This document shows positions 1 to 50,957 of a stretch of DNA of 64,000 bases, in pieces. The notes beneath the pieces are model-generated. The model was not told the origin of the DNA. It worked only from the letters and a program-made list of their open reading frames with translations, and did not search any database. How positions within the stretch are numbered: the first letter of the stretch is position 1; each line of letters opens with the position of its first letter. The translations under genes were made by a program, and so were the position numbers. Source of the stretch: a virus (lineage: Duplodnaviria; Caudoviricetes); the IMG/VR virus record IMGVR_UViG_3300028833_000053; one strand, 5' to 3'.

Positions 1-180
1 TTCCTCGAAGAAGTAGTATTTGGAAACAGCCTGCATGGCAACCTTCCCTTCGCGTTTACGTTTTCCGGTAAACAAGTTGCGCATCTCTTCTTGAACTTTC
101 TCATAGGGTGGCTTCTGGAAAATGCGCTATGTCACGTCTTTCCATTCTTCTTCGCTTCTCTATTCAATTGTTTCAGCCAT
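1..180 (-). CDS. Hypothetical protein, 5' part only (runs off the window); two in-frame TAG read as Gln
   Basis: ATG at 180, 9 nt after a GGTATAAT box. Reads MAETIE(Q)RSEEEWKDVT(Q)RIFQKPPYEKVQEEMRNLF... with TAG at 160-162 and 127-129 and no TAA/TGA to the window edge. Confidence 0.6.
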
Positions 181-238
181 ATCATATCAATTATACCACA
201 ATGTTTCATATTTGGAGAATAATGGTAAATAGCAGCGT

Positions 239-1747
239 ATGGACAATGAACAGGACATATACTACAACGAGTTTTTTGAGGGAATCCCACAAAATCTTTC
301 CGGACAGGAACTTCAAGCCTGGTTGGAGGAGAATCGGGACAAGACCTTCAAAGACCTTCCGTTGTTGAAGAAACTCACGAAGCGTGACATTTGGGAGGAC
401 AAGGCGAAATTCTACTTCTTGCCGTTTCTCATCAACTGCTATAACTTCACGCGACAGCACAAGCTCCCTTATTTTACGTTGATGTGTTCCCCAACGTTCA
501 TATTCTACCGTGACAGGTTGCATTTGAGAAATTGGATGGACACCATTCACAAGACGTTCTTCAAGTGCCTTGATATGGTCATTCCAAAGGGCGAGAAAAT
601 AATGCTTCTTGTGGAGAAGAGGTTTCACATAGAGAATCCAATTGCGGGTGGAACGCAACAACTATACAACATGCTTTGGGATTGCGATTTGACGCCCGAT
701 CCAAAGAAGGTTAGGATACTGGCAGAACAAATACCCACGTTTAATCCAGATATGCCTGTTGAAGGGGGTTTGGACTTGTGTAGAAAGACCCTTTGGCTTG
801 AGGACGATCTTCTTTTCCTTGGAAAGAAATACACGTTCATTGACCAATATGAGTCCGAGTATGAATATGATTGTGATGAGATTCTTGACCTTTCCAATTT
901 GCATGAAGATAGGCAACCGATATGGGAGAAAACGGCAAGGCACTTCTATTTCAAGGTGTTTGAACCGAAGGACGCAGGTGAACAGGAAATAATACCACCC
1001 ACACCGGATGAAGAAGATGATCCCGAATATGATGATTTTGACGTTGATTCCAGCCAGTCTGGAATGTTGGACTCCACATTGGACTTTGAGGAGGATGAAA
1101 GTGAAATGAACAAGATAGTAGCATTCTTTGCAAAAATGCCCAAAGTCACAGGACTTGTTCAGGGCATGTTGGATATGATGGCGGCGCTGGCCCGTATATT
1201 GCCGCTTGTTGCCGTGAAGTTGGAGGAAGACCCCAAACTTAAAGACGCTTTGGGAAAAACCGTGAACATCATAAACCTTGGCATTGGCAAGGTTCTCAAG
1301 ATTTGCGCATACCTCGGAATAAAGGTTGAACGCAAGGAGGGGGACGCCGTGAAGCAAATCGTGAAGAACCGATTCAAGAAGGACAAGAAGGAGTTCTTGG
1401 ACTACGAGATTGACGAGTTGAACAAGTCGCTTGACGCATTGGAGAAGGTTGACGATGAACCGGAAAATCCCAAGCCGCCAAAGGGTCAAATACCTTTGGA
1501 CGTGAAGCCAAACCACCTTTATCCGCAGAAGATGCCACTTGGTCCGCATCCACCACATCCAATAGTGGTGCCGCCTGAACCACCACCGGTTCAGGTACCG
1601 CCACCACCTCCACCAAAGCCACCCAAACCGGAGGATGACCCGCCATAGTCAAGCGAGTCTGAATTAAACCCGGAACCCCCACCAATTCCACCCGTGACGC
1701 CGGAACCACCAAACCATCCACCCAAGGACGAAAATGGAATATAGTAA
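239..1747 (+). CDS. Hypothetical late protein with Pro-rich C-terminus (502 aa with TAG=Gln)
   Basis: The track ORF stops at TAG 1646-1648, but the Pro-rich tail continues (SSESELNPEPPPIPPVTPEPPNHPPKDENGI) to TAG-TAA at 1742-1747. GTAAATA at 225-231. Confidence 0.75.
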
Positions 1748-1780
1748 TGTAAACACATCTAACCAACGAGGAAAATTGAA

Positions 1781-3001: not shown

Positions 3002-4369
3002 ATGGCAGTTAACAACGATAAGCACAAAAGACCACCACCAAGACCTTATGGTCTTCCACCTCCGCCACCCCCGATGTATGGATACCCTCCGATACCGGGA
3101 ACCTATGGCGTGTATCCCTATCCCGGTGGATATGGAATTCCGCCCCCGCCTGCTCCAGAGCCACCACCTCATGTGCAGGAACCCCAGGAACAAGAGGATT
3201 TGACCCCACCCGATCCAACTCCAACATATGACAACAACGTGGTTGCAACGCAATCTTGGGTGAAGTCCATGTTGAACAAGTTCAGGGATTGGACGAAGTT
3301 CTTTGCCACCGAGCAGCTTGAGGTTGGTGGAACGATAAACGCAGGAAGGTTGAAGACGGTTGACCTTCAGACAAACGACATCTATGCTTCAAGGCTCACG
3401 TTGCTTGACCCCAACGGACGTCCGGCGCAAGTATACATTGACGAAAAGGGCAACCTTCAAATCAACTACGACTTCCAGGACGTGTTCATCTATCCCGGAC
3501 TTGGCGACGTGGAAATCAAGAGGTATGTGTACAGATATGGTTTCTTGCCTGAGCAGATTGCGTCCAACTTTGTTGGACTTACGCCATATCAGACACTTGC
3601 AAACTTCGTTCCCTATGACGCGACCGAGGCGAAGAAGTTCAACGACAAGATTTGCTTCAAGTTTTGCGAGGCGGATGGACGTGACGTTCTCATTGACAAG
3701 ACGATGCTCTTTATGTGCAACCAGACAAAGAGGATTGTTGGAATTGACGTTTGGGACGAGTACGGGGAGCTTATCCCACAGAAGTGCATTGTCCTGCCAA
3801 CCGACAAGGTTTACAGGAAGGTGACGTTGAACATGCCCAGCTTCATAAACGACATTCCTTTCCCATGTCCGCATAACCACGAGCATTGCCCCGAGCATGA
3901 CAAGACGCATGAGCAGGAACACGAGGCTGTTGCGCATAGTGAAGATGGAACTTGTGGCGAGACGCAAGATGGAAACTTGCATCCTGGACATGTCACAACC
4001 GGACACATCCATCATGGAATTGCCCGCGTGATTCTTCCTGGCGACTATCCAATGTCGGCAAGTGGCGATGAATGGGAGGCGTTCCAGCCGCCATACTTGA
4101 ATCCTTGCAGGCCGTCCTATTTGTGGCATCCTTCCCCGTTTGTACCACCGATGCCACCTCATCCATATCCTCACTTGACACATGACATCTACGAGGATTA
4201 CGGTGGGTTGACTTGCGAGGCGTTCAACAAGCCCTTGAACATAGAACCTGGCTACAAGGTTGTGTATGAGGACTATGAGACGAACACCTATTACAACATC
4301 TGCTTGAAGAGAAGCTATTTCCTTTAGAACAAAAAACAGTTCATTGCAATCAAGACGGCAGATGCCTAA
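3002..4369 (+). CDS. Hypothetical Pro/His-rich late (probably virion) protein
   Basis: Track ORF 3002-4327 extended through TAG 4325-4327 (QNKKQFIAIKTADA) to TAA 4367-4369, followed by a terminator. Confidence 0.75.
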
Positions 4370-4443: not shown

Positions 4444-6531
4444 TCAATAGTTGTTTCTTGACAAGATGTTGATGTTCTTGTTCACCACCCTTATTCTCTT
4501 GCGCAATTCGTATTCCGTGTTGGTGTAGAGAACCGGGAACATGAAAGGTTCAAGGCTGATGTTTCCACTGTGAATCTTCAAGTCGTCGCCAAGGTTTATG
4601 AGCGAGGTGTTTGTGGTGAAAGATGCCATTGAAATGCCATGCGTGTATGTTGGGTTCTCGTTCAATCCAGATTGATACACAGTGTATATGTCGGAAATGG
4701 CCGGCACTTTCTCCATTATGAGGTTCACGATGTCGTTTGTGTTGAAGGAGCCGAAACCAACTTGCCTGTTCTTCACGTTGAAGAAGTACGTGAACAATGA
4801 GCAAACGCGCTCAATCACTTCATATGACGATATGGAATAGTCGTCGTTCACGCGGATTTCCAACCATGAAGCATCGTAAGTTGTATCGTCCTCCTTGCGT
4901 ATTTGCGGAACAGTTGTGGAACGGTTTGATTGAAGATATTGCTTTGCCATTTCCTCCGGAACGCTGGAAATTTCACAACGTATTGGCAAGGCTGGCAAAA
5001 ACACGGGTTCGTGGCACAAGTCCTTTATGTCAACCATCATGGACTTGCAACGTTGAACCATCTGGTCGTAGTTGATGTCAGAAACGTCTCCGAAGTTGGT
5101 TATGTACCAAACATATACGTTGTTGGAGTCAACGGCGTCGGACAATGACGCGCCGCCATACTTCGTGAACCTTGCGGGGTTGAGGTAGAACCTTGGGTTG
5201 TTGTGCTTTGTCACGCCAAGTTGGTTCAACCATCGGTAGAACGTTGCGGCGTATTCCCAGTTGTTCATCACCTTCACGGAGTTGAACATGCCGTTGATGG
5301 AAGGTTCGTTCATTATGAAGAACTCGTAGTCCTCTTTTGTCACAAGGCGGTTGTTCAACTTGAACCAATGCGGAGCACGTTCCCGTATGTTCTCCACAGT
5401 TTCCTCTTGCATTGCGGACGTTGAACCGGTAAGAACCTTGCAAGAGATTTCCGTTACGTTGTATGCGTCCTCTCCGAATATGGCTCTGTAAAGTTCTTCG
5501 CTTATGTTGAACAAGGCGGGACCGTGCTGGAACTCCAATTCCGATGCACTCGGTTGAACTCCCCCATCCATGCCCTGCGTTTCCAGATAAAACACGTAGA
5601 GTTCAGAATTTGGCGTGAGTTTCTTGGTTGTGATGCCATCACCGAATTTCAATACCAGTTGTTTTATCTCGTTCAGTTCAACGTTGAACACGTTGCAGTC
5701 GTCGCCTCCCAAGCCATTGTACAAGAAATTGTGCAATTGGTCGGTGTCGTTCATGTTGGGAAGCCCCTTGAACAATCCCGCGTTTGTTGGGTGGAAGATG
5801 TTTATGGTGGTTTGCGTCCAATCAACTTCGTTGGGGTTGTCTGGCATCATTTTCTTTATGACTTCCACGGCGAAGATGTGTGAGGTTGTGGCGTATTTTT
5901 GCTCCGCCAGTTCGCTTCTCACCATTGGCATCACGAACGTCTCGAAGTCGGAGCCGTTCGGTGTGAAGATGGTTTGGTATCTTTTCCACATACCATTGTG
6001 CAGAACAATGTCATAGGGTTCATCTTCATCCAAGTTCCGAGGGATTATGCAGCTTTGCCACCTGTAGGGCGAATAGGAATAGTATTTTCCGCCGCTTGTT
6101 GTCACAAGCGAAAATGGTGGTATGCTAACTTCCTTGTCAAGGTTTGCCTTTACAAGTTCTCCTGCGTTTTCAATTCGGAACATCGCCGTTGATGGCGTTA
6201 TGCCCTGGGCGTTGTAGCCCAGCAACTTCGCTATGCGAACGATGTTCTCGTAGTATTGCGATTGGCTGAACATGGATTCGGACGCCGCGTGGTTCAACTG
6301 GTATGTCAAGGTTTGGTACATCGTGGCAACCAGGTCAACCAATATCGCTATGTTGGAACCTGGATATACCTAGTCCCTTGTAGCCGGGTCTTCAATCAAC
6401 TTCCTTATAATCAAGTCGCGCATTTGGTATGCGTTGAAGGTGGCGTACTTTACCGGAAAATCCTTTGAAAGCGAGACGTTCTCCTTGGAAAACCTCTTTT
6501 CGTCGTCGTAGTTTGTCTTTGAAACACTCAT
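4444..6531 (-). CDS. gp6: Baseplate wedge subunit, T4 gp6-like (695 aa with TAG=Gln)
   Basis: From ATG 6531: ...ATRD(Q)VYPGSNIAILVDLVATMY...ESMFSQSQYYENIVRIAKLLGY; also FGDG and ETVENIRERAP...NRLVTKEDY. TAG at 6370-6372 lies inside the conserved N-terminal gp6 motif. Confidence 0.85.
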
Positions 6532-7758: not shown

Positions 7759-9366
7759 ATGTTTAAGACAAACTCAGATTATCAGAAGAAGCTGCTCAAG
7801 CGTTGGGCGCCGATTCTTGAAAAGGGTGCGCCAATTGAGAGCGTCGAGAAGAAGCTCGTGGTTGCGCAGTGCCTTGAGAACACCCGCAAGGAGTTCTGCA
7901 AGAAGGGTCTCTTCACGGAGGCCGCTCCTTCCAACACGAACAACCTCGATGCACGTCATCCTACCTACAATGCTCCTATTTCTGGTCAGGGCGTGTTGAC
8001 GGCGAACGACTACATCCTTCCTAACGTTGTGATGCCTATGCTCCGCCGTATTTTCCCAACCCTCATGGCTCACGAACTCGTCGGAGTCCAGGCGATGACC
8101 GGTCCTACGGGACTTGTCATGGCTCTTCGTGCAGTTGCTGCTAACCCAGAGCGCGTTGGTCTTCCTCAGGGATATGAATTCGGCTACGGCAACAAGGGTC
8201 GTGCCAACCAGAGCATCTTCACGGGCGACGTCGCATCCAAGACCGCAGTGAAGGGTTATGGCAATAACGATGAGGAGAAGGAAGCCAACCTCATGAACAA
8301 GCTCTACAGAGAGAATGGTCCGCTTGATGAAATCGGCGCGTTCTTGAATGGTCAGTATGGTTCTCAGTCTGGCCGTGGCGTTGCTACGGGCAATGGCGAG
8401 GGCTTTGCAAGGGGAACCGATGGCACTTACACTGGCATTGATGGTAAAGATTATCCTTATGGAAATGGAGCTGGTGGTTATGCCAAGGGTTATGCCGGCG
8501 CTTCTGGCGACATTGACCCAACCTTCGGTCACTGGAGGAACAACACGTATCCTCAGGCTACCATCAAGTTCGAGAAGCGTCTGGTCGCCGCCGAGACCCG
8601 TAAGCTGGGTTCCGAGTGGACACCAGAGGACGCCGAGGACTTGGAGGCAATGCAGGGTATTGACCTTGAGACGGAGATGACCAACCTCATTTCCTATCAG
8701 ATTGGCGCTGAAATCGACCAGCAGATCAAGGAGTCCATGATTCTCGCCGCTTGGAAGGACAGCAAGGTTCTTGACGTTTCCAAGCTCGATGGTCTTGACC
8801 AGATGGGCCGTATCGCCGCGATGTTGACCTTCGTGACCCGTGAGGCTAACGAGATCTCCATCAAGACCCGCCGTGGCGCAGGTAACTTCGTTCTTGCTTC
8901 CACAACGGTCTGCTCTTGCTTGCAGCAGCTTGGCACATCCAAGCTCGTCAGCGATGGCAAGACGATGCCTTCTGTTCCTGCTTCCGCAATCGGAGCAATG
9001 ACGAAGGAAGGTCTCATCAACGATGGCCGTCAGTTGCTCGTCCGCGACACCAACACGTTCGGTTCCTACGCCCTCGTTGGCTACAAGGGAACTCACGCCG
9101 GTGACAGTGGTATCATCTACTGCCCATACATCCCTGTGACCCTCTACAAGGCTATCAAGCCTGAGAACGGCCTCAGCGTGATTGGCGCACGTACCCGCTA
9201 TGGCTTGGTTGACAACCCATACGATGCTGAGAACTTCTATTCTCTCATCAAGTTCACGGGCTTCGACCAGGGTTACAGCCTTGGAAACTCCAACCGCACC
9301 TTCTTCGGTGACGCGACGGATTCTTCCGACTCTAACTTCAGCCACCGTAGTGGTCTCATTGGCTAA
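7759..9366 (+). CDS. gp23: Major capsid protein, T4 gp23-like
   Basis: KRWAPILE...LEN propeptide, probable cleavage at FTE/AAP, PMLRRIFPTLMAHELVGVQAMTGPTGL, TRKL..EWT.E..EDL.AMQGID, TRRGAGNF, YCPYIP, RTRYG; strong codon bias. Confidence 0.97.
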   Translation: MFKTNSDYQKKLLKRWAPILEKGAPIESVEKKLVVAQCLENTRKEFCKKGLFTEAAPSNTNNLDARHPTYNAPISGQGVLTANDYILPNVVMPMLRRIFPTLMAHELVGVQAMTGPTGLVMALRAVAANPERVGLPQGYEFGYGNKGRANQSIFTGDVASKTAVKGYGNNDEEKEANLMNKLYRENGPLDEIGAFLNGQYGSQSGRGVATGNGEGFARGTDGTYTGIDGKDYPYGNGAGGYAKGYAGASGDIDPTFGHWRNNTYPQATIKFEKRLVAAETRKLGSEWTPEDAEDLEAMQGIDLETEMTNLISYQIGAEIDQQIKESMILAAWKDSKVLDVSKLDGLDQMGRIAAMLTFVTREANEISIKTRRGAGNFVLASTTVCSCLQQLGTSKLVSDGKTMPSVPASAIGAMTKEGLINDGRQLLVRDTNTFGSYALVGYKGTHAGDSGIIYCPYIPVTLYKAIKPENGLSVIGARTRYGLVDNPYDAENFYSLIKFTGFDQGYSLGNSNRTFFGDATDSSDSNFSHRSGLIG

Positions 9367-12472: not shown

Positions 12473-13759
12473 TCATTTGTTCTTCTTTGCCTTGTCAACC
12501 AAGAAGAATATCTTGAACGTTATTTCACTTTTCCCTGAAATTGTATGGAATCCAACCGAAATGTTCTTGTCCGCCAAAAGTTTCAAGGTTTTGCATCCAA
12601 TGTCATACCAATTCCCCGAATAGGAAGATGGGCCCGGAATTTTGAGAAGTGGCGTTGTGAACAAGTCTCTGCTGTTTTTAGAAGTGTTCAATCCTATGAT
12701 AAGGTTGTATTGCTGTGGATAGTTGCAAAACGCCCAAGAGAACAAAACCCGGAACTTAAGAACGCGCTTCCACATACTGTCTTTTCCAGTGTCATCCATT
12801 CCAGAAATGTTCTTCAATATTTCATCCACATCGTCAATGCTCTTTGGCATTTTCGTTGGAATCCATTTCTTGAGGTCTTTTGGCGGAATTGGAATGTCAG
12901 TGAAGTTCGCTACGTCTTTTGTGTTCAGTCCGTTGAACATACCTTGGGGAAATTTGCCTGTTGGAAGACGGGCTGTTATTGAACCACTGTCACCCTTTAT
13001 TTCATATTTTCCACCCGACATGTCTATGTCACCTTCATCGGACGCAAGTTTGCAATCCTTGAAGAACAATGCCACCGCGATTTCACCTTTTCCTATGTCT
13101 GTTCCGTTTTTCTTGAAGTTGGACATTCCAGTTATTGCATCAAAGCAACGTATGATGGCTTCTGCAGTTGGTTTCTTCAACTTGTTGTAAAATGCCTGTC
13201 CCAATGTGCCTTCTGCTTCTTGCAGGATTTCATTGAGGGTAAGTTGGCTTTTTGGATTGCATATGTAATTGAAAAACGCCATGTAATCGTTGTTGTTTTC
13301 CGGGTTCTCGCTTATTTTGTCAAAAATTGCCTACACTTCAAGTTTTGGCTTAAGCCCTTCCGTTTTTTGATCAACTATCTAAATGAATTGGTTGAATTTT
13401 TTGTATCCGTTTTCTGCCTCACCGCCTATTTGCTGAAATACATTTTCCATACGTACAAGTTTTTCGTCAAGAAACTCCTCTTTTATTCCGAGCATTCTTC
13501 CAGTGCTTTTGGCATTTTTCTTGAATTGCTCCCAAGATTGAGACAATATATTGGAATTTCCAGTTGGGGCAGTTCCTTCACATATCAATCCCTGACCACG
13601 AAGGGCGTTGTCCCAGAACACACCTTCTTTTTCCAGATTTCTTGGTTTATCGTCCTTGTTTGGTTCAGGATGCGAACTTTCCGAATTCAAGTTCTTGAAA
13701 GTGTATTCCTTCTTTACAGGTGCATTGATGTCAACCCAGTGGTATTTGTCGAATCTCAT
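12473..13759 (-). CDS. Late protein with possible PD-(D/E)XK nuclease-like domain (428 aa with two TAG=Gln)
   Basis: Track ORFs 13379-13759 and 12473-13282 are in frame, separated only by TAGs at 13379-13381 and 13331-13333. Motif IGKGE...EGDID...YEIKG. TATTTAC at 13790-13796. Confidence 0.65.
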
Positions 13760-14874: not shown

Positions 14875-15579
14875 ATGATGAAGTGGAAGAAACTGATAAA
14901 CGAGTCTGTTGACGAAAAGGCGTTCAAGAAACTGCTCAGGTAGAATGGCATCACAAAACTTCCATCTGGGATGAGTTCCCGTAGGGATGGCATGATGGAA
15001 TGGCGCAAGGAACGTGGCTATGCTGGGGAAAAGATCATTGACGCGATGCGCAAGCAGGCCGAAGATGCAGGATGGAAACGCCAGAAGGAAATGGATGATG
15101 CCCATCCAGATGGTTCGTGGGTGGCAAGGGGTGATGGATATATTTCACCTGATGGTCAGATTGAGATGACCTATTATTCGCATTATGGCGCAACTTCCTA
15201 TGAGAACAGTTTCTCCATCACGTTCAAGTTGGTTGGTAGCGTGAACGAATCCAGTAGGTTTGGATTTGACGTTGGCGATCAAGTTGAATTGACGAAGGAC
15301 AAGGTGAATTCATTGAGTGGGGACACCGTGAAGGCCGGCACGCAGGGCGAGATTGTGGCAATCAACAAGCCCATGCCCGGTGTCATCAAGGTGAAGATTG
15401 ATGGTGGCAAGGTGATTTCTGTTCCCGAACGTCAGTTGAAGAAGGCTGGCGAGGATGAAGAGCCTTGGAAGAAATTGAAGAAGCCTGAAGAGCCAAAACG
15501 CCATATTAGACCCGAACGCCCAGAGGACTACTACATGCGTCCAACGTCCTATGGTTCTCCAAGGTTTACGGGCGATTAA
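14875..15579 (+). CDS. Hypothetical late protein, probable internal head protein (TAG=Gln at codon 23)
   Basis: GTAAATA 14846-14852 and GAGGT RBS precede ATG 14875 (MMKWKKLINES...); TAG 14941-14943 is in frame with track ORF 14971-15579. Confidence 0.75.
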
Positions 15580-15588: not shown

Positions 15589-16290
15589 ATGTTGAACATA
15601 GACAATTTGATTGAAGCCGGCGTCCAAACAACGTAGGACATGGAAAAAGCGAAGAAGGGGAAGAACAGAAACGCAAAGGAAATCCCCTTTGAGATTGACG
15701 GTCACACCTACCTTTTGGACTCACAGGAGGAATGGTGCATGTTCAACTGGATTAAGGAAATGAAGGAACGTGGACTGATCTTGGATTATGTCTACCAGCC
15801 GGAGCACTGGGAATTGACCCCAAGGTTCGAGTACACGCCATATCCAACGGTTGTGGATAAGAAGAAACGCCCCGTTGACGAGAAGTACGCGAATGTCCCA
15901 AAGCCATTCAAGACGAAGTTCTTGATGCATCCCCATATCTACACAGCTGACTTCACGTTGAAGTTTGACGCGAACAACCTGAAGTTGATGGAGTATTTGT
16001 CCCAAGCGTTCAAGTTGAGGTTGGACGATGTTTACGATGGGGTTCTGACTTTGGTGGTGGATGTGAAGGGAACGTTCATGAGCAATGACGGTGGACGTTC
16101 CTTCTCCATAAACCAGAAGTTGATGATGGCGGTTCACAACGTGTATGTCAACAAGTTTGTTCCGAAGGAGGCTTTCAAGAAGTTGGGCGTTCCAAAACGC
16201 TGCACAACCACCATGAAGTCCGGCAAGGCAAGCAAGGTGTTCAAGGGGATGAACTTCCTGGAGACCGTGTTGAAAGGATATGGACTATGA
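15589..16290 (+). CDS. PD-(D/E)XK endonuclease-like protein (DUF1064-like)
   Basis: DSQEE...YQP...YTADF...VDVKG. AAGGAG RBS before ATG 15589; TAG 15634-15636 read through. Alternative start at 15640. Confidence 0.65.
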
Positions 16291-20114: not shown

Positions 20115-20513
20115 TCAACGGCTGATTTCGTTCATTAGGATTGGGGCAAGTTCACCCATATAAGGAAGTGATCGTGCAGTGTTATATGAAGTCCAGTCTT
20201 CAGCTTCTTCATGTGTCATACCTTCCCTCATCAAGCATTCCTGGAATCTCTCAACGGAATAGATTATGTGGTTTCCGTCATAGGTGACGCCGATGATGGC
20301 ATCGGCGTACTGTTCCGGCGTGTCGCCAATGAATATCAAGTCCTCGTTGATGCTCTTCAATTCCTCCACGCATCTGGTTTTTTCCATTTGCTCCTGCTGT
20401 TGCAGAAGGGTTTTCGTTTCTTCCACAACGTCAATTCCCATTTCCTTCAATCCTTCTGGGTTTTCAACAACGGCGTGAATCTTTCCGTTGTCTGAGGTAA
20501 ATTCCATTTTCAT
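20115..20513 (-). CDS. Hypothetical phage protein
   Basis: 132-aa ORF, AAGGAG RBS, DAIIGV...GMTHEEAEDW.SYN. Confidence 0.75.
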   Translation of the reverse strand: MKMEFTSDNGKIHAVVENPEGLKEMGIDVVEETKTLLQQQEQMEKTRCVEELKSINEDLIFIGDTPEQYADAIIGVTYDGNHIIYSVERFQECLMREGMTHEEAEDWTSYNTARSLPYMGELAPILMNEISR

Positions 20514-20824
20514 CAGATTTGTTCTCCTTTCAAGTCCACCTTTGACACGATATGGTCCGTGTCGAAAATCTTGTACTTCTTCCCTTCAAGGGTGATGTCA
20601 ATTCCAACAGCTTCCGTTATGACAACATCCCCAACCTTCAGGGTTATCTTGGGATAGGCGAATTCCTCTCCTCCGCCATATACCCATTTCACCCTGTAGA
20701 ATTTCAGGTTCTCCTTGCAAAGCCTGTCGTCAAGTTTGGTTGAAGTGATGAAGAAACTGCCCTAGTCGGTGTTTCCGCATTCTTCGCAAATGACGCGCTT
20801 CTCTCTGGTTATCGTCAAGTCCAT
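20513..20824 (-). CDS. GroES-like co-chaperonin, single domain (absent from ORF track; TAG=Gln at codon 21)
   Basis: MDLTITREKRVICEECGNTD(Q)GSFFITS...LKVGDVVITEAVGIDITLEGKKYKIFDTDHIVSKV. TAG at 20762-20764; exactly fills the gap between its neighbours. Confidence 0.75.
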
Positions 20825-25518: not shown

Positions 25519-26781
25519 ATGGCAATACATATAGGAAACATTGGGGGTGGAAGCATAGTGGTTGATGGCAAAAAACCACTGTTTTCCTTTTCTGCAATTT
25601 CGGACATACATCTTCACGACAACAATGATGATAGTGGATACGACGATTTGGTGAATCTGTTCCGAGTTCTAGGAAACAGAATTCAAGACAAGGAATTGGA
25701 TTTGCGCTACATCTGCGCCGCCGGCGACATTGGAATGGGTGGAGCGAACAAGGAGCTGTTGACATTTTCCAAAATAGTGGACGCAAAATGCCCTATTTCC
25801 AACAAGAATGTTTTTTCTTGCACCGGAAACCATGACCAACAGCATACGTGGCAGGAATGGACGGATTACATGTTTCCCGAGTCATTGCACAGTCAAATCA
25901 CTTCTGACTTGAATTTTGTCAAGGAGGATGGAAACTTTGTGTTTGCTTTTATGTCTATGGCGCATCAGAATGACAGAAGTACAACAGTAAATGGTAGGAT
26001 ATGTTTTTTGGATGATAGTAATTCAGTTTCTGGTTCAGGAACAAGACAATGGCTTCGTAATGTTGTAGAGTAGGCAAGAAACAAAACATTGATTTTGTTT
26101 ATGCACTATCCTTTCCAGAACAGGCGTTGTTATGACAAATCCACTACATCAATCAACATATATGATTGGGCTACGGGAAATTACATACCAAAAACGGTGA
26201 ACGTGGCCGAAACAGCGGAACAATGGGCAGGTCTTCTTGATTTGGGTGGTTCTGCAGGTAGCAATGAGAGTTGTGCCAACTATGGTTTCTATTGCAAGGC
26301 TGCCGCTTCAATTGATTATTCAACACCCAGTGAGTGTGAACAAATAATGGCGATTCTGAATCAACATGTTGGGGGAAAAACCATCGTGTTTTCCGGACAC
26401 ACACATCTTGTATTTGAAACTGAGCGTTTTGATTATGTCATTGGAAAAGGCTATCCAAATGTCAATGTGGCATATGTGAGGAACTATGACCCTGACAAGA
26501 ATGAATACACACCAACCAACATCGTCACAGTTCATATTCCATCCTTGAATCATCCAAGGAAGCTCAAGGTTTCAAGCATAGGCAGTGTGAGTGGGTGGGA
26601 AACTATTTCTGGCGCAAATCCATATCGTCAACCATGTCAATCCTGGCTTGTGGATGTATATGACAACAAACTTGTGTTGAATGGTTTTGAAACTCAGGTT
26701 TCACATGACAAACGTTATGGCGATATTTTGAACGATTATATCTACACTATAGACTTGACAGATATAGTTCCGGTTGCGTAA
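25519..26781 (+). CDS. Calcineurin-like metallophosphoesterase (420 aa, one TAG=Gln)
   Basis: SDIH, AGD and GNHD lie before TAG 26071-26073; MHYP and SGHTH lie after it in the same frame. Confidence 0.88.
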
Positions 26782-27087: not shown

Positions 27088-27693
27088 ATGAAACGTATTA
27101 TACAAGTGAATGAGAGTTGGGATCCTGAATACGATGACAAGCCAGTGAACCAGTTTGGGGAGAAGTGGGAGAAGATTTCGGGAACATGGCTGAACCAGGT
27201 GATAACGAACATCATGAAGGATGTCCAGATAGACCCCTTCGAGGACGGACCAAAGATGGAAAGTTTGAGTTTGGGCAGCTTGCATCTTTGTGAAGATGGG
27301 CATCTCATAGCCACTGTGTATGGCGGTGCCAACGGTGGTGGCATACGGGGCAGGGAATCCAATTGGACGTTTTACATGTCCTTGGTTAGGAAGTTTCTTG
27401 GCAAGATTCTTGACTACGACAACGGCCAGTGCTTCAAGGACGTTTGGATGATAGATTGGGACAACGATTGCTGCGATGACGTTTGGACTTTGAGACTTGG
27501 GCTTGAACTATCCGACGAAGAGAAACTCCAGTTGACCCAATGTGGATTCAAGGTGATTGATCCAACCTAGTTGAATATTGGACTTGACGCTGCAATGGAT
27601 ATGTTCACGCCATATCCCATGGCGCAGAATGTGGATTGCTCAAACCCCTACAATGAATCCAAGATAAATTGGCGCAAAATAAGTGCCAAGTGA
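27088..27693 (+). CDS. Hypothetical protein, probable internal head protein
   Basis: MKRIIQVNESWD...; extends through TAG 27568-27570 for 40 more codons to TGA. Confidence 0.7.
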
Positions 27694-28403: not shown

Positions 28404-31337
28404 ATGGTTGAACCTGACTATAGATTGGATTTTGACGTAGAGAAGATACGTGATGTGATTGAACCGAACGATGGCTACACATGGGTTTACTATGACCCAA
28501 TGGGCATGGACAGGAAATTGGGGGAGAATGGGAAGATTTGGTTCAAGTGCTACGAGAAGGACACCCACAAGCCCATAGTTGTTGAAGTGAAGAACTTTCC
28601 CTCTACCCTGTGGCACCGTGTTGACAAGTCCGACGAAATGGCTAAAACCGGAATGGTGGATGCCTATGGTATGCCTGTTGTACAGGAGGTTTTCGACAAC
28701 GTGGCACTTCGCCGCCAATGGGTGAACACATGGAAGAAACGCTCCGACTATTGCGAAAAGCAGATTGTGCAGAACCAAGACCCTTGCGACGAGTTCATGC
28801 AGAAGGTGTTTTGGAGGGAGGCTCAGGAGGAAAGTTTCAACAAGGGCTTCCAGCGCGTGTTCTACATTGATATTGAGACCGAGGTTTCGTCAACGTCTCT
28901 TATGCCGTTCAAGGCTGTTGACAAGATGTTGATGATAACCATATACGACAACAAGACGGACAAGTTCTACACATGGTCTTTGAATCCCGCGGAAGTGGAG
29001 TTTCATGACAGTGTTGATGAAGAGGGGAACGTGACATGGCACAATCCCTTGAAGGACTATCCAAAGGACAAGTTTGTTCTGTATGACAACTTCAACGGGA
29101 ATGAAGCCGAACTGCTCAAGCACTTCCTCTACTTCTGGGCAACAAACTATCCAGACGTTGTGTGCGGGTGGAACAGCCGTTGGTACGATATTCCCTATAT
29201 CGTGAGGCGTATCGAGAACGTTCTTGGCAAGGCAAAGGCGCGTTTCCTCTCTCCGCTCGAAGACTACAAAATCATCCATGAGAAGTCTGACAAGAAAGAC
29301 GAAAACGGCAAGTGGATTGAGAAGGAAGAAATTGAGTGGGTGGACATCAAGGGCATATTCCAGGCGGATGAACTAATCCTCTATTCCAAGAAGTTTGGCG
29401 TGAAGCAGGCTCTTGATGGCGGCTATGGTCTTTCCAACGTAGGACAGGCGGAGGGCTTTGGTGGCAAGGTTGCGTATGAGACAACGCTTCTTGACCTGTA
29501 CAACTCCGACTGGCAGAAGTTCTATGAGTACAACGTCCGAGACGTTGAGCTGCTATGGTCTATCGAGAAGAAGTGCAAGTTGATTCCATTGGCGAGAACC
29601 GTGGCGGGGTTTGGACTCGTGAACTATGACTTCATCTATCAATCTGCCCCGTATCTTGTTCCGACCATCACCATATTCTGCATGAAGCACCGCGAGAACA
29701 TGATATTCAATTCCTACGCCAACAACTTCCGCGAGAAGGTCAAGTTTGAGGGTGCGTGGGTCATTGACCCGGTTGTTGGGCGGTATTCCTATGGCACGGC
29801 AACGGTGGACTTCAATTCACTTTATCCTTCCTGCATGAGAATGTTGAACCTCTCAATCGAGACCTATGTTGGGCGGATTGACGATGGCTATTCCGGTGTT
29901 GGCGGACTTGACAACGATTGGATGCAGCGTGGTGGAATAGACGGCTATCCAGACGACTATCTGTTCAAGTTGATTATTGACAGGGTTGACATTCAAACCC
30001 CGATTGAGAAGGAGATTGACGCGAAGACCCTACGTCATTTGCTTGACACCAAGTTGATTATCTGTCCAACGAACATGACGTTGTTCTTGAAGCATGAAAT
30101 CAAGAGGGGCGTGATTGCGGACTGGGCGGAGGTTTTCTTCAACCGACGCAAGGCAACCAAGGACGAGAGGTTCAAGTGCGACAAGGCAGCCGACAGGACT
30201 TCTGACCCAGATGAGAAGGAGAGGTTGATGACGAGAGTGGAGAATCTGGGCAACCTTCAGCAGGCGTTGAAGATTTGCCTTAACTCCATCTACGGTGCGT
30301 TGTCCACCACGGGTTGTCCGTTCCTGCATTCAATCGGATTGGCACAATCCGTGACAAGGGCTGGACGTTTCTCAAACTACAATGGAAGGTTGTTCTACCA
30401 GAAGTGGCTGCAGGAGAACTACAACATACCTGACGATTACGTTGTCACGGCGTCCGGCGACACCGATTCCTACTTCATGAACCTTGAAGCGGTCACAAAG
30501 GATTTCATGGCGAAGAATGGTTGGGACAACGACTTGAACAATTGGACTGACGAGCAGAAGTTGACCCTCTGGAACCACATGCAGAAATTCACGGACGAAT
30601 ACCTTGTCCCCCATGTCCAGGAACTCGTCACGAAGGAATTTCACACGTCAAACGCTGCCCCGATGAAGTATGGCTTGGAGTACATGACTTCCGGTGGCAT
30701 ATTTGAGTCTCCGAAGCACTACATTGTACACAAGATTGTTGACGAGGGTCCGAAGATTGTGGATAAGTTCAAGTACACTGGAATCGAGTTGAAGAAAGCC
30801 ACCGTGCCACCGGAAATCAAGAAGTTCATGAAGGACATCTACTTCACCGCCGTGCTTGACCCCAAGTTTGACCTTGAAGCCGCGAAGAAGAAGATGGACG
30901 AGGTTTACCAGGAACTTTTGAAGATGTCACCGAACGAGTTGGCGAAGTGGCAGGGCTATGGCACGGAATCCCAGATGGACGGCTTCTTGGTTGAGGCAAA
31001 GGGCGCGACCGGAATCGGCAAGTGCGCAAACTACTACAACCAGATAATGCACAAGTTGGGGTTGGACAAGAAGTACGCCCTGATAAACGTCAAGGACAAG
31101 ATTCAGACCATCTACATCAAGCCCACGAACAAGTATGGCATTTCACAGATAGGGTTTCCGCCCCGCCAATGGCCGAAGGAGTTTGACGACGTTTTTGAGA
31201 TTGACTATCCGAAGATGATGGAGAAGGTTGTCATTTCCCCGTTGAAGGGTATGCTCAAGGCTCTGCACATGGACAGTCTCATTAAGTACAACCCCAGCGT
31301 GTCAGCTTCATTGGAGTATTCGGTTGACGATATTTGA
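28404..31337 (+). CDS. gp43: Family B DNA polymerase, T4 gp43-like
   Basis: Exonuclease motifs DIETE, GWNSRWYDIPY, YNVRDV; polymerase motifs DFNSLYPS, KICLNSIYG, GDTDS. Start reassigned to ATG 28404 (GAGG RBS). Confidence 0.96.
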   Translation: MVEPDYRLDFDVEKIRDVIEPNDGYTWVYYDPMGMDRKLGENGKIWFKCYEKDTHKPIVVEVKNFPSTLWHRVDKSDEMAKTGMVDAYGMPVVQEVFDNVALRRQWVNTWKKRSDYCEKQIVQNQDPCDEFMQKVFWREAQEESFNKGFQRVFYIDIETEVSSTSLMPFKAVDKMLMITIYDNKTDKFYTWSLNPAEVEFHDSVDEEGNVTWHNPLKDYPKDKFVLYDNFNGNEAELLKHFLYFWATNYPDVVCGWNSRWYDIPYIVRRIENVLGKAKARFLSPLEDYKIIHEKSDKKDENGKWIEKEEIEWVDIKGIFQADELILYSKKFGVKQALDGGYGLSNVGQAEGFGGKVAYETTLLDLYNSDWQKFYEYNVRDVELLWSIEKKCKLIPLARTVAGFGLVNYDFIYQSAPYLVPTITIFCMKHRENMIFNSYANNFREKVKFEGAWVIDPVVGRYSYGTATVDFNSLYPSCMRMLNLSIETYVGRIDDGYSGVGGLDNDWMQRGGIDGYPDDYLFKLIIDRVDIQTPIEKEIDAKTLRHLLDTKLIICPTNMTLFLKHEIKRGVIADWAEVFFNRRKATKDERFKCDKAADRTSDPDEKERLMTRVENLGNLQQALKICLNSIYGALSTTGCPFLHSIGLAQSVTRAGRFSNYNGRLFYQKWLQENYNIPDDYVVTASGDTDSYFMNLEAVTKDFMAKNGWDNDLNNWTDEQKLTLWNHMQKFTDEYLVPHVQELVTKEFHTSNAAPMKYGLEYMTSGGIFESPKHYIVHKIVDEGPKIVDKFKYTGIELKKATVPPEIKKFMKDIYFTAVLDPKFDLEAAKKKMDEVYQELLKMSPNELAKWQGYGTESQMDGFLVEAKGATGIGKCANYYNQIMHKLGLDKKYALINVKDKIQTIYIKPTNKYGISQIGFPPRQWPKEFDDVFEIDYPKMMEKVVISPLKGMLKALHMDSLIKYNPSVSASLEYSVDDI

Positions 31338-31390: not shown

Positions 31391-31882
31391 ATGAAGAAAC
31401 TGAATATCACGAAGGAGCGTTTCGAGAAGTCGCGCTATTTTTAGAGGAAGTATGGGAATCTTGAATATGTTTCCGAAAGTGGAAAGCTGTTCAAGACAAA
31501 CAAGGGCAAGGTCTTGAAGTTCAATGAGGCCGTCCATCCACATGAGACCGACGTTGATGTTCCTGTGACAGACCAGGAGAAAACTCTGTGTCAGTACATT
31601 GGAGATGAAATTGAAGGGGAATTTAACGATACAACGGGTTTGGAATTGACATGTGGTTGCAACTGGCACAATCCTGGAGAAGAGCAGCATATTGAAATTT
31701 TTGTTGGCATTCCTGAAGAGGATGATTCATCCGATCCAAAATATGACAACATCGAGACGTTCTTGGAGCAGTTTGTCAATGGAATCGGAGACGCCGAGAA
31801 CGAGGGCGAGAAGTGGGGAGATGCCAGTTTCCAGTGGATAAGCGACAATGAACTGTTTGGCGAATTGTGGCCGATTAAGTAA
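31391..31882 (+). CDS. MKKLNIT-leader family protein with acidic cargo domain (TAG=Gln at codon 18)
   Basis: MKKLNITKERFEKSRYF(Q)RKYGNLEYVSESGKLFKTNKGKVLKFNEA...; GTAAATA at 31347-31353. Confidence 0.85.
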
Positions 31883-32662: not shown

Positions 32663-33004
32663 ATGATTGGATTCGTCAAGATTGCGTTTGCGTCAATGTG
32701 CTTGCTCCTTGCATCGGGGTGCATGAACATCTATACAAGGTGGCCGACAACACCAAGGTAGATTGAATCAGTTTACTAGTCAACTGGGGAAATGGCTGGA
32801 ATCACGTTGATTGCGTCATTCCCATAGATGATGTCAGACAATGGTTCTCCGGATGGTTTCATCCCCGAGAACCTTATTTCAATCCCATTCCTGGGATTGC
32901 CATGTTTGATTGACACTGTTCTTGAAGTCGCGGTTGACACAGTGTGCTTGCCCTATGACTGGCCCGTTTCACATTATAGGAATCGGAAGCGCGAGGGATT
33001 TTGA
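32663..33004 (+). CDS. YceK/YidQ-like lipoprotein (absent from ORF track; three TAG=Gln)
   Basis: Signal peptide with lipobox LASG-C; C-terminal LIDTVLEVAVDTVCLPYD; TAG at 32759, 32777 and 32825. Confidence 0.75.
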
Positions 33005-46350: not shown

Positions 46351-47301
46351 ATGGAAAAAACAAAAAACATAAACTAGGAGTTGGTTTCAAAGTACAAGGT
46401 TGACAATACCTTGCTTGAATCCTACTTCAAGAACGCGAGGAACCAGGACATCACTGGCGTGGTGTTCCCTCTCCGCGTTGACAACAGACAATACTGCTCT
46501 CCTACGGACTATCAAGCGGACAAGCCATCTTGCTGTGGATATTCCACGGCGCAGATTTTGGAGTCCCTCAACTGGGCCGCAACCGGAAAGGTTGTTCAGT
46601 TTGACGCAGATCAAATCTACGCGAAGTCAAAGGAGACGGACAAGCAAATGGGCATCCAGGGAACTTATCCCGACCTTGCCTTGATGAAGGGGCTTGATCT
46701 CATCCCCAATGGAAACAAGAACTACGTTGTGAAATGCTCAACTTCAAAAGACGTGGCCGAATTGAAGCGCGTGATTCACCAGAACATGTTTGCGTCCGTG
46801 AACCTCATGGTCACTGACGACATCTATGGTTTGGACAGTTCCAATTTCGTGTACCAGGGCACTGGAAAGACTGTTGGCGGACATTCCATGGTGTGTTGTG
46901 GATATGATGAAAACTCCAAGGTGTTCATCATGCAGAACCACTGGGGAACCGAATGGGGATTGAAGGGATTTTTCCTCTGTCCTTATGACGTTTGGGAGAA
47001 ACAGAGCAACATCATTTGTTGGTATGAGAAGGTGGAAGCATCTTCAATCAAGCCAGAAGTCCGTGAGGTTGTGAAGGAGGTTGTAAAGGAAGTGGTGAAG
47101 GAAGTTGTGGTGGAGGCGAAACCAGAGCCAAAGAAGGAAGAGGTGAAGCCGGAACCAAAAAAGTCCGAACCAAAAAAGCCGCTGCACCCAAAGCAGGAGC
47201 CAAAAAAGGAAGAGGTGAAGCCGGAACCCCCAAAGGAAGAGCCAAAAAAAGAAGAACCTCCAAAAGAGGAACTTCCGAAGGAAGAACCGAAGAAGGAGTG
47301 A
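46351..47301 (+). CDS. Papain-like C1 cysteine peptidase with E/P/K-rich tail (TAG=Gln at codon 9)
   Basis: Q....SC, GGHSMVCCGYD, QNHWGTEWGLKGFF; GAGG RBS before ATG 46351; TAG at 46375-46377. Confidence 0.88.
47062..47298 (+). repeat. Coding low-complexity repeats (EVVK)n and (EPKKEE)n
   Basis: REVVKEVVKEVVKEVV followed by about seven imperfect EPKKEE units. Confidence 0.8.
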
Positions 47302-47310: not shown

Positions 47311-47356
47311 TGCAATGACTGGTTGAATCGTGGGTTCATTCAACCAGTTGTTGCAT
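47311..47356. terminator. Long hairpin, possible terminator or processing site
   Basis: TGCAATGACTGGTTGAAT...ATTCAACCAGTTGTTGCA. Confidence 0.55.
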
Positions 47357-47420
47357 GGAAACCGTTGGTGATTTAGTAAATAGTACTGCAATTTGAATAT
47401 CATACGAAGGTAAAACGAAC

Positions 47421-50400
47421 ATGAGAATAATTATTGACAAGGACATTGCTGAAGTCCAGCTTCTTCAGGAAGCCTACGAGAAGGACATGCCAACCTACAA
47501 AGTGAGGGCTGTCAACCAATATGACAAGTTTGTGTACGCAAAGGACTTGAAGAAAATCAACGAGGCTTGCGATGCCGTGTATGACATCGTGTTTGATCCT
47601 GCGTTTGATGATTGCCAACAGGAAATCGTGGAAGTGTGCGAGGGAAAGGAGCGCATCATCTGGTCATCCGACAACAAGACATTGGTACAGGAATCGGTGT
47701 GGCAGGAAGCTGAGAAAGCCCAGGGTGCTGGAAAGAAAGGTGCGCAACAGAAAAACGCCAAGACCGACTAGAACAAGGGCGGTTTCTGGGACAAGGTGAA
47801 GGGTGCGGCGAAGGCCGTTGGTGGTGCGCTTGGAAAGGCACTTGACGGTCTTAAGAAGGGACTTAACATTGTCGGAGCCATGACAAAGCAGTTCTCCAAG
47901 GACATGCTTACCAAGTGGAGAAACGCAGGTTACTTCAACAAGGAAGGACGCATTACGGGACTTGGTTACAAGGTGATGATTGGCGAGGTTGAGAATACGG
48001 TCCCCGTTGAAACTGAGGACAAGACAAATGACATTACCCAGGCATGGAAGGTTGCACAGTCCAATGTGGTGAATGCCCTTAAGAAGCAGGGCTTTACGAT
48101 AAATGGTGAAGTTCAGGCGATTGTGAAGAACGATAAAGACCCCATTACTCTTTCAGCGGATGTTACCGACAAAGATGGCAATGCCTCTTCAATTGAATTC
48201 AACCAGGATGGAACAATGGTTGATGGCGGCGCGCAGAACGCCCAAAACGCCGATGGTGGAAATGGCGGAGGAAACAATGGAGGCGGTGCCAATGGTGGTG
48301 GCAACGGCGGAGGAAACAATGGCGGAGGAAACAATGGCGGAGGAAACAATGGTGGTGGAAACAATGGTGGAGGTGATGCCGGTGGTGCAGCCAATACCCA
48401 GCAAATAACCCCCGACCAGGCACAGAAGAACCCAAAGGCCGCCCTTGGCAACCTTGCAACCCGTGTGGCAAACCTTGAACAGGCTGTTGGAATAAACGAA
48501 TCCACTTCCTACAATTGGAACTATGACAACCAGGTTAATACGAACCGCCAAGGACTTGAGCGCATGGTCATCAAGAGGTTCTTCAATGACTTGAACGATC
48601 CTGACGTGAAGGAAATCAAGTTTGTTTCAGAATCCGGCAAGGTGAAGGTATATGAAACCGCAAAGGGTTCTGAAGCCTATGCCGAGTTCAAGAAGGACTT
48701 TAGGGAAGCAACCGCAAACGCCACCGGCAAGTTTGCGCAGTACAAGGTGACCGTTGAATCAGGAACGAAGTCAAGGCTCAATGGCTACAAGTTCTCTTCA
48801 TTTGGACTTGACGACGACTTTGATTCCGAAAGCAAGACCATCATATTCAGGGAAAGCGTGAAGAAACTTGTTTCCCCTGATGATACCACTAAAAAAAAAG
48901 TTGAACCAACCAAGGTAAACGAATCCGAAGTCAAGATTCCGGAAGTCCCCAACAACACGGAGACTTGTGGCTTGACTTTGGAGCTTGACAAGAAAGACCC
49001 GCTTGAACAGGTGCAGGCTTTGCTTGCCTCCATGAACAAGTACAATGGAATTGAGAAAAAGACACCCGAGAACTATGACGGAACCATTGACACTGGCGTT
49101 TCCACATATCCAGATGTCCCGACTTTTGAGACACCAAAGAAGCAGGAACCATTGGAGGTTCCCGAACAGAAAACCCCAAAGGTTGAAACTCCGGAAGTTG
49201 TGAAGGAAGCCGAGGGGGACGATGATGGTGGCGGAGACGATGGTGGCGGAGAAGCTGACCCGTTTGGTGGTGGTGACGATGCAGGTGGCGGAGACGACGC
49301 CGGTGGTGGGGATGACCCATTTGGCGGCGGTGCCGATGGGGGTGGTGACGCCGGTGGAGATGCTGGCGGTGACGCAGGGGGAGGAGAAGCTGACCCGTTT
49401 GGGGGTGGTGACGGAGGAGATGCCGGTGGAGACGCAGGCGGAGACATGGGCGGTGACGCAGGTGGTGATGCGGGAGCCGAAGGTGGTGATGAAGCCGCCG
49501 GCGAACCTGCCCCGGAACCAGCCGTGAACACGGACGCACAGGGCAACCCACAGTCCCAATATAACATCAACATTACCGAGCCTTTCAACGCCGAGCAGGA
49601 TTTTACGTTGAACGAGGAAGAGCAAAAGGAGTTCTTTGGGAAGATTGACCAGTTGGTGAAGATTCCAGACATGGACAACTATTCCCTTTACCTCTATCAA
49701 ATAACGCCAGAGAACATGAACCTTGACGATGTTCATTACATCGAGGCTCTTTACCAACTCTCCGTGAAGTTGGGTCTGCTTGAGGACGTTTACGCCGATT
49801 CCAACTTGCTTGAGAAGTACAATTCCTATAAGTATTCCGTTGTGAAGAATGGTGAGGGCGAAGATGCCACGCAGGGTGAGGATGCCTTGACCGTCCAGGA
49901 GCAGAAGACCCCAATTTGGCAGGGCAACAAGGTTCTGTCAGAAGCGAAGGAATCCGAGAAAAAGACCGTCAAGGACGACAACGAAGAGAAGAACAAGGAT
50001 TCCAAGAAAGCGGGAACTTCCGAGAAGGACGATGAACGCCGTGGTGCAAAGGACATGAAACTTGACCTTGACAAGAACGGTGCGCCAAAGCCCGTTGTGA
50101 TTGACACAACGAAGGAAGGTTGGGATTCCCTGAATGGCAAGGAACATGGCAAGTTGGTGGACTCCACGGTTGAGGGCGATTTCCACGGGCTGGGTTGGCT
50201 TGTGACGTTCAAGGCTATGCAATTCGGCTCCCCAAGGTACATGACAATGTACATCAAGAGGAATGGCAACGAAAAGGCCGAGAAGCAGTGCGAAGAATAT
50301 CTCAAGAGACTTTCCTACTCCGAGATTGAGTTTGTGAAGATTGAGGAAATCGACCCATACGAGTACATGTACAGGCAAAGCTGCTCTGGAATGAAGACGC

Positions 50401-50957
50401 CCGAGGAAATCCAACAGGCTTCCGTTGTGAACAAGGACATTCCCTATCTTGAAAGTTCCGAACCGGATTCAGTTCCAAACGACATCAAGAGGGACATCAA
50501 GAAGGTCATAACGAAGCTCAACGCGGAAATCCGCAACACAAAGCAGTTCAACTTCATGAACGAAACTGGCGTGTTCAAGCCGCAGATTGACCCACACGAA
50601 TTCATGATGGGCTACAGGACGGCGAAGGTTGACGAGACCGTTTCGGAAACCACCTACAAGTTCGTGTTCAAGAAGAACGATTCCACGTTCTCCCGCATGT
50701 TCTATTCCAACTTGAAGGAAAAGCTGTTCAAGTACCTTGGCATTTTTGCCCAGAAGTTCGGTCTTGAATGTGGTTGCGAATCTACGCCAAAGGCAATCGT
50801 CATCGACTTCATCAGGTCAGACCTTGGAAATCCTGGATATGACCTTGAAGGAATGGTTGATACTGTGGAGGAACAGCCAGTTGAGACAGACAACAAGGAA
50901 GAGGCGTCCGTTGCGCCAACACTTGACCAGGCTATGGAAATGGCAAAGAAAATTTAA
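47421..50957 (+). CDS. Large multi-segment probable internal head protein (1178 aa, one TAG=Gln)
   Basis: Track ORFs 47421-47771 and 47796-50957 are joined through TAG 47769-47771; many xxE-S/A sites; Gly-rich tracts; GTAAATA at 47376-47382. Confidence 0.8.
48255..48374 (+). repeat. 15-bp coding tandem repeat (GGGNN)n
   Basis: GGCGGAGGAAACAAT units. Confidence 0.85.
49215..49495 (+). repeat. Coding Gly/Asp repeat (GGDA)n with three DPFGGG units
   Basis: GGDDGGGEADPFGGGDDAGGG... Confidence 0.85.

Follow-up and report, generated by a model that had tools for sequence, protein, structure and literature searches.

TAG as a probable glutamine codon in a T4-like gut or rumen phage of about 434 kb, and a variable candidate suppressor tRNA locus in its relatives

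The window, its genome and its relatives

A 64,000-nucleotide (nt) stretch of the IMG/VR virus record IMGVR_UViG_3300028833_000053, hereafter the window, was analysed with regard to the codon TAG, which occurs inside the genes of this phage and is most probably translated as glutamine (genetic code 15). The window is part of a 433,894-bp ENA contig, which places the phage at ~434 kb, and the source is a gut or rumen metagenome. Its GC content lies between 43 and 49%, with ~46–47% for the lineage. Across the window, a T4-type core was found, consisting of a Gp23-family major capsid protein (MCP), a gp6-like baseplate wedge subunit (phrog_219), a family B DNA polymerase, a clamp loader (phrog_168), both topoisomerase II subunits (phrog_543/phrog_551) and a helicase. 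The initial description of a T4-like large phage therefore holds, both in gene content and in contig size.

When 20 kb of the window was compared with GenBank phages by megablast, no match appeared, and all 2569 GenBank phage records matched by the MCP stayed below 60% identity, with T4-like cyanophages being best at ≤30%. A separate and apparently new lineage is plausible. Relatives were taken from IMG/VR, where genomes syntenic with the window at ~75% nucleotide identity are available, and three of them (G001, G002 and G003) are listed together with the features of the window in Table 1. The public gene calls on the 433,894-bp contig follow the standard code and cut genes at TAG; the gp6-like protein, for example, appears there as two pieces of 632 and 53 amino acids (aa).

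Table 1. Features of the window and of related genomes. Positions refer to the window unless a genome is named.
Feature	Position or size	Strand	TAG codons	Remarks
Late-type gene, Pro-rich C-terminus	239..1747	+	1646, 1742	TAG 1742 directly before TAA; GTAAATA at 225
Gene	3002..4369	+	4325	14 codons ahead of TAA stop
gp6-like baseplate wedge subunit	4444..6531	-	6370-6372	Codon 54; phrog_219 match (E 5e-27) spans TAG
Gp23-type MCP	7759..9366	+	none	phrog_138 (E 2e-70), PF07068
Gene	12473..13759	-	13379, 13331	One open frame under TAG = Q; two GTAAATA upstream
Gene	14875..15579	+	14941	Homology on both sides; L or M at column in relatives
Resolvase-like gene (phrog_190)	15589..16290	+	15634	CAG, CAA, CAG (Q) in relatives
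Small Cys-rich protein	20513..20824	-	20762	G001/G002 homologs 59-62% identical span TAG; G or V there
Late gene	21510..23438	-	23166, 21885	Both spanned by G002 homolog; GTAAATA at 23475(-)
Tail-fibre-like gene	23562..25121	+	23841, 24054, 24078, 24210, 25032, 25071, 25074	7 TAGs; Phage tail repeat PF12789 (E 6e-12)
Metallophosphoesterase	25519..26781	+	26071	PF00149 match, residues 26-204, crosses TAG
Gene	27088..27693	+	27568	68% identical homologs continue past TAG; K at column
Family B DNA polymerase	28404..31337	+	none	phrog_262 (E 7e-133); putative TATAAT-type promoter upstream
Leader-paralog family member (MKKLNITKE...)	31391..31882	+	31442-31444	Codon 18
Small gene	32663..33004	+	32759, 32777, 32825	Zero CAA/CAG codons
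Giant ORF, 3591 aa	35529..46304	+	11 TAGs	Codons 15 and 51 among them
Papain-like peptidase (PF00112)	46351..47301	+	46375	K in relatives; 16/18 downstream residues identical
Virion structural protein, 1178 aa (phrog_4150)	47421..50957	+	47769	CAG in G002
Mostly replication genes (clamp loader, topoisomerase II subunits, methylases)	50973..64000		none	Zero in-frame TAG in curated genes
Leader-sharing genes	1781-1951; 31391-31882; 33106-33840; 50973-51857
Relative G001 (IMGVR_UViG_3300021255_002539)	414,060 bp			Terminal repeats
Relative G002	418,068 bp			Terminal repeats
Relative G003	201,557-bp fragment
Candidate non-canonical tRNA-like gene	G001 ~297,900-298,100 (L141:1321-1399)	-		CUA anticodon
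Candidate non-canonical tRNA-like gene	G003 ~114,620-114,720 (L142:829-907)	-		CUA anticodon

TAG within genes and at gene ends

Sixty genes (19,708 codons) were curated, and their coding frames were chosen by conservation across genomes. Within these frames, TAG occurs 37 times, spread over 16 genes or about a quarter of the set, while in-frame TAA and TGA are completely missing. All genes end in TGA (32) or TAA (28), none in TAG. If read as sense, TAG fuses neighbouring same-frame open reading frames (ORFs) across the window, and it accounts for about 6% of the window's Gln codons. TAG is a sense codon in this phage, and the in-frame TAGs are real.

An earlier note, made from the nucleotide letters alone, had reported 43 in-frame TAGs in 18 genes up to position 50957. 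The in-frame TAGs as such were borne out, but the count came down to the curated 37 in 16 genes, and the surplus may consist of pre-start or antisense TAGs. The same note had stated that the ORFs flanking the TAGs stay in frame and that genes end in TAA or TGA, which applies to all 60 curated genes. The end coordinate fits as well, as curated genes beyond 50957 are without in-frame TAG. TAGs at 6638, 33091, 131/257 and 54543 were not counted, since they lie upstream of likely start codons, and two minus-strand ORFs (18347–18943 with 7 TAGs, and 17973–18350) were rejected as antisense to conserved plus-strand genes.

Conserved gene ends give the same picture. Aligned stop:stop columns contained TAA and TGA only, 93 between G001 and G002 and another 33 between the window and both relatives (126 in total), and the two codons interchange freely. 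A reverse check yielded 36 further stop:stop columns, in which the sole TAG match was an antisense artefact.

With the public standard-code calls listing the fragments as separate genes, the TAGs could also be taken for nonsense mutations or assembly errors, the split ORFs being pseudogenes or independent genes of the standard code. Frames are, however, broken by TAG alone and never by TAA or TGA, and three independently assembled relatives behave alike: G001 carries 201 TAGs within the homologous spans of 66 of its 275 genes, and nine TAG:TAG columns are kept between G001 and G002. The in-frame TAGs of the relatives sit at positions differing from those of the window. Moreover, TAGs hit genes that are essential, gp6 and the tail fibre among them, and the exact TAG-truncated gp6 fragment, with the same TAG, is present on three separate contigs. 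Because homology crosses the TAGs and conserved gene ends are never TAG, pseudogenes and assembly errors are excluded as a general explanation, and the probability that we assign to them is negligible.

For individual genes, the strongest case is the gp6-like wedge subunit, where the column opposite the TAG holds CAG (Q) in six of six relatives and 16–18 of the 18 flanking residues are identical per side. The earlier note had singled out this TAG as lying inside the conserved gp6 N-terminus, and TAG 26071 as splitting a metallophosphoesterase with five motifs; both hold, with the phrog_219 match running across the former and Pfam and PHROG matches across the latter. TAG 26071 is spanned by three full-length homologs (403–443 aa) and one N-terminally short homolog (340 aa), which show Q, N, D and E at the column, with Q in the closest one. 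The G002 homolog of the gene at 239 aligns across TAG 1646 to its last residue, and the terminal TAG-TAA of the window (1742–1747) lies opposite AAA-TGA in G002. For the gene at 3002, the G001 alignment runs 10 residues beyond the TAG, with His at the column. In the tail-fibre-like gene, G002 homology flanks the TAGs and continues beyond the tandem TAG-TAG (25071/25074), and the G002 homolog of the small gene at 32663 has K, Q and Q at the three TAG columns. The least supported case is the gene at 12473, for which relatives give only weak homology.

The residue at TAG

The codons found in relatives opposite the window TAGs were CAG (15), CAA (2), AAG (6) and ACG (5), with the rest being scattered. 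At columns with conserved context, the relatives showed Q in 9 cases, K in 6 and other residues in 9. Likelihoods were calculated with substitution tables built from the same alignments, and for the 15 well-flanked columns of the window, Gln was the best fit by 17 log-likelihood units over Lys. In the comparison of G001 with G002, the 122 cells opposite TAG contained Q 50 times, E 11 times and K 10 times, and Gln was favoured by 146 units over Glu. Here, TAG faces CAG and CAA at an equal 1.5%, and AAG, GAG and TAC, each a single change away from TAG, at only 0.1–0.2%. Since CAA, which is two changes away from TAG, is as frequent as CAG, the signal resides at the amino-acid level and does not reflect mutational proximity. 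The proposed reading of TAG as Gln is thus supported in both data sets, and the alignment of homologs shows Gln enrichment at TAG columns and homologs that run through the TAGs, with position 43359 as the ambiguous case.

A different residue (pyrrolysine, Lys, Glu or Tyr) would agree with Lys being the second commonest residue opposite the window TAGs and with the label ‘Pyl’ that ARAGORN attached to a tRNA with anticodon CUA in G002 (described below). The relatives are without PylS: the PylS_Cterm model found no match in G001–G003. Together with the likelihoods, which strongly favour Gln, and the equal pairing of TAG with CAA and CAG, which points to equivalence at the amino-acid level, this makes another residue very improbable.

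The in-window paralogs had been put forward as a way to read the amino acid, as TAG 31442 in the gene at 31391 stands opposite CAG in two paralogs (1781 and 50973). This observation is correct, but it carries less weight for Gln than assumed, because relatives have T, K or N there; the fourth paralog, at 33106, has AAC. The paralogy itself concerns an N-terminal leader of ~45 residues, MKKLNITKE..YFxRKYG.LEYVSESGKLFKTNKGKVLKF, common to four otherwise different proteins of the window. Many copies of this leader occur in relatives, and its role may be that of a propeptide or targeting module in proteins packaged into the virion.

Gene classes and upstream motifs

TAG is unevenly distributed over the gene classes. 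Carriers are mostly late or structural genes, namely gp6, the tail-fibre-like gene, the giant protein and the virion protein, and further include the peptidase, the phosphoesterase, the resolvase-like gene and several genes of unassigned function. Besides the MCP, the DNA polymerase and the replication genes of the last 13 kb, a scaffold-like gene and the helicase are TAG-free.

The heptamer GTAAATA, which we take to resemble the T4 late promoter TATAAATA, occurs 21 times in the window against 3.95 expected occurrences, a five-fold excess. Sites include 225, 2955, 6564(-), 6631, 13790(-), 14846, 23475(-), 23509, 25485, 31347 and 47376. Within 110 nt upstream, the motif was found for 10 of 16 TAG-bearing genes, compared to 7 of 44 genes without TAG (Fisher p = 9e-4), and the remaining six TAG-bearing genes lie on the same strand downstream of a GTAAATA-preceded gene. 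TAG-free replication genes are preceded by TTGACA/TATAAT-type sequences. Both kinds of sequence are putative promoters.

Three further observations were made on the window and its relatives. An ORF of 523 aa is found antisense to the MCP gene (7774–9345, minus strand); it has no family match and is most likely a codon-bias by-product rather than a gene. The DNA polymerase gene of G003 contains a ~2.4-kb insertion (G003 28741–31195) relative to window positions 30469–30473, possibly an intein or else an intron that bears a homing endonuclease. Finally, the 3747-bp contig IMGVR_UViG_3300035054_001202 is 100% identical to window positions 6691–9403 over 2713 bp, with the other ~1 kb unaligned; either the contig is chimeric or the strains differ by a rearrangement.

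The suppressor tRNA locus in the relatives

In G002, ARAGORN detected one tRNA(CUA) at 268611–268687. It does not belong to the main tRNA array and lies 1.9 kb away from a gene of the Pth2 family, which is conserved in G001 and G003. For G001, ARAGORN reported no tRNA(CUA), even at relaxed thresholds. However, G001 and G003 carry a 79-nt cloverleaf at the spot syntenic with the tRNA(CUA) of G002, behind the same TATAAT and the same leader GAGAAACGAGAC..AGTTTCAA. It comprises a 7-bp acceptor stem (UGAUCCA/UGGAUCA), G73, an encoded CCA, a 4-bp D stem and a 5-bp anticodon stem with a 7-nt loop that reads CUCUAAC or CCCUAAC and thus has CUA as its anticodon. Its 5-bp T stem closes an 8-nt loop without TPsiC, and the D loop is without GG. 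The minimum-energy fold of the G001 copy is this same cloverleaf. All 21 of 21 pairs form in both G001 and G003, with three compensatory changes, compared to 33–48% pairing in slid controls. We read the structure as a candidate non-canonical amber suppressor tRNA(CUA). Judged by these sequences, the tRNA body at the Pth2 locus differs between close relatives, and one version evades standard tRNA finders. Another tRNA-like hit of ARAGORN in G001 (‘tRNA-???’, 367853–367926) was rejected as a suppressor, having a 6- or 8-nt anticodon loop and a CAU-like anticodon.

With regards to charging, U1:A72, G2:C71, G10 and G73 of the G001/G003 structure are what we take to be identity elements of E. coli glutaminyl-tRNA synthetase (GlnRS). 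A search of the relatives found no GlnRS or GluRS, no release factor, release factor 2 (RF2) included, and no anti-RF1 function. As the relatives are without a GlnRS of their own, charging by the host enzyme appears likeliest, which is also how the literature sees it. The relatives also encode a transfer-messenger RNA (G001 368037–368369, G002 238260–238595) with the tag GNDYRMAA or GNDYSMAA, located within arrays of 27–35 tRNAs.

The distribution of the locus was followed by pattern scans. Its leader was found in IMG/VR only in the three known relatives, and in metagenomes only as G002-identical copies plus chance matches. The 17-nt anticodon stem-loop of G002 matched 33 IMG/VR contigs, the G002 record included. 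Nine of the others were run through ARAGORN, and at the matching site seven of them have a CUA tRNA whose body is unrelated to that of G002; since the bodies are unrelated, the stem-loop matches are uninformative on kinship. The sharing of the anticodon stem-loop CAGGUCUCUAAAACCUG with G002 is seen in CUA tRNAs of IMG/VR contigs of 46–167 kb (L096, L102, L107, L111, L127 and others).

The giant protein and leaky termination at TAG

The 3591-aa giant protein, which the public standard-code calls chop into six pieces, contains 11 TAGs. Its G001 homolog is a single frame of 2421 aa with 14 TAGs elsewhere, and the G002 homolog is likewise open, again with TAGs at other positions. At the TAG columns of the window, the relatives show Q, Q/TAG, V, E, Q, N and G/K. 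The C-terminus has Pfam and PHROG matches and includes, from about 43464, a module of LRR_5/BspA and Listeria-Bacteroides repeats.

One alternative takes TAG as a leaky stop with partial suppression, which would yield truncated as well as read-through products and would make 43359, 25071/25074 and 1742 attenuators or terminators. It draws on the stop of the G001 homolog, which coincides with TAG 43359, and on the LRR/Flg_new module behind it: neither G001 nor G002 has the 980 residues past 43359 (Listeria-Bacteroides repeats, LRR_5/BspA) at this site, and the module starts with its own Met in a 432,741-bp relative, being called as an 870-aa protein with a start corresponding to window position 43464. 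The tandem TAG-TAG 15 codons ahead of the gene end, the rarity of TAG and its avoidance in the most highly expressed gene, that for the MCP, point the same way, as does the failure to find an RF2 gene or anti-RF1 function in the relatives. However, most TAGs lie early or midway in essential structural genes (gp6 codon 54, giant protein codons 15 and 51), positions at which truncation would leave a useless product. In addition, TAG never replaces TAA or TGA at conserved gene ends, and homology runs on beyond both the tandem TAGs and TAG 1646. We therefore consider leaky termination unlikely as the general explanation. Under uniform translation of TAG as Gln, the giant protein would be a fusion product, and under partial suppression it would exist in a short and an extended form. 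The module at 43464–46304 itself looks like a swapped host-adhesion cassette.

Weighing the evidence

Several results weigh against a general recoding of TAG to Gln, or against the suppressor locus as described. TAG 43359 falls within a codon or two of the TGA stop of the G001 homolog, so that at least one TAG could be a leaky terminator. Many window TAG columns are non-Q in relatives (K, T, V, N, L); such residues are expected at variable sites, yet Gln is not proven for each TAG. The comparison of coding density under code 15 and the standard code, which had been proposed as a check, turned out small and non-specific: a greedy stop-to-stop cover rose from 90.8% to 95.0% with TAG as sense, a gain of ~4 points that falls short of the 10% criterion of a published survey (PMC13037316). 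Reading TGA as sense lifts the density similarly, and for this reason density alone would not reveal the recoding. A tRNA search of the 64-kb window found none. The Rfam tRNA model gave no match to the G001/G003 candidate even at E values up to 10, and the tRNA-like reading of this candidate is based on two sequences.

Against these points stand the codon counts, the conserved gene ends and the two likelihood comparisons. We regard the in-frame TAGs as confirmed and their translation as Gln under code 15 as strongly supported and highly probable.

A mechanism can be proposed on this basis. Early and middle genes, being TAG-free and behind sigma70-type promoters, would be readable by the unmodified host machinery. 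A phage-encoded amber suppressor tRNA with anticodon CUA, driven by a TATAAT-type promoter, would most likely be charged with Gln by the host GlnRS, and the genes preceded by GTAAATA, which contain TAG, could be translated to full length only after the suppressor has appeared. That the genome of the window itself encodes such a tRNA is inferred, as are the charging enzyme, the timing and any regulatory purpose.

A wider scenario is put forward tentatively, as a possibility that falls somewhat short of probable. In it, TAG-to-Gln recoding would have arisen independently in a deep-branching lineage of T4-like huge phages at 46% GC, where sparse TAGs would, in addition to T4-type late transcription, act as a translational gate for late genes. 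An early-promoter tRNA(CUA) together with Pth2 would form a code-switch locus with swapped tRNA bodies, and read-through at 43359 would maybe append an LRR/BspA adhesin.

Comparison with known systems

TAG-to-Gln recoding, suppressor tRNAs and the bias towards late genes are well known from Lak, crAss-like and further clades of gut phages (PMC6784885; 10.1101/2021.08.26.457843), and for crAss-like phages the recoding was confirmed by metaproteomics (PMC9523058). The present phage resembles these clades in several respects: in-frame TAGs in structural and late genes with replication genes largely compatible with the standard code, TAG opposite Gln, TAA and TGA as terminators, a gut or rumen source, and a suppressor tRNA(CUA) without GlnRS, here in the relatives. 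Recoded late genes and early genes fit for either code match the published picture (10.1101/2021.08.26.457843). In contrast to these clades, the present phage has a T4-type core (Gp23, gp6, a gp43-like polymerase and topoisomerase II). Borges et al. described Lak at 562 kb, other large clades at about 150–210 kb and small ones at 22–34 kb (10.1101/2021.08.26.457843). The present lineage, at ~414–434 kb, lies between these size classes and is smaller than Lak (about 540–660 kb). While the published recoding route invokes low GC, its GC content is 46–47%, and its recoding is sparse, with 37 TAGs in 64 kb and no RF2 found in the relatives.

Jug phages represent T4-like viruses of 360–402 kb and 27–30% GC from human and animal guts, in which alternative coding is not evident (PMC12363816). 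By published description, they share with the present phage the T4-like type, the size of several hundred kb and the gut habitat, but differ from its 46% GC and its use of TAG as sense. A 2026 survey of jumbo phages found alternative codes in 8.75% of rumen jumbo phages, detected by a 10% rise in coding density, and gave as an example a Portal_GP20 gene (a T4-type portal) restored by code 15 (PMC13037316). About 61% of the genomes with an alternative code had CUA suppressor tRNAs, and some recoded phages were without a detectable suppressor (PMC13037316). The window lies below this density criterion, and the survey describes neither the present lineage nor its suppressor locus. By size and composition, judged from the assembled sequences, the lineage appears to fit no named clade.

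In E. coli, suppression of the supE type relies on a tRNA-Gln with CUA anticodon, which is charged by GlnRS and inserts Gln at UAG. The tRNA considered here differs in being phage-borne, its version in two relatives is without the canonical T loop and the GG of the D loop, and TAG is never a terminator. The kind of recoding is therefore known, and what appears to be new is the lineage, T4-like, at 46% GC and sparsely recoded, as well as the variable suppressor locus.

For the use of public data, this means that the standard-code calls split at least 16 genes in the window, and that the genome and its IMG/VR relatives should be read with code 15. Sparse recoding with a density gain of ~4 points slips past density screens, so that recoded phages may be undercounted. 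Likewise, where a recoded phage is listed as having no suppressor tRNA, one may be present but overlooked by standard finders. In a T4-like lineage, the early, middle and late programme of T4 offers a frame in which recoding can be tested as a means of timing late translation.

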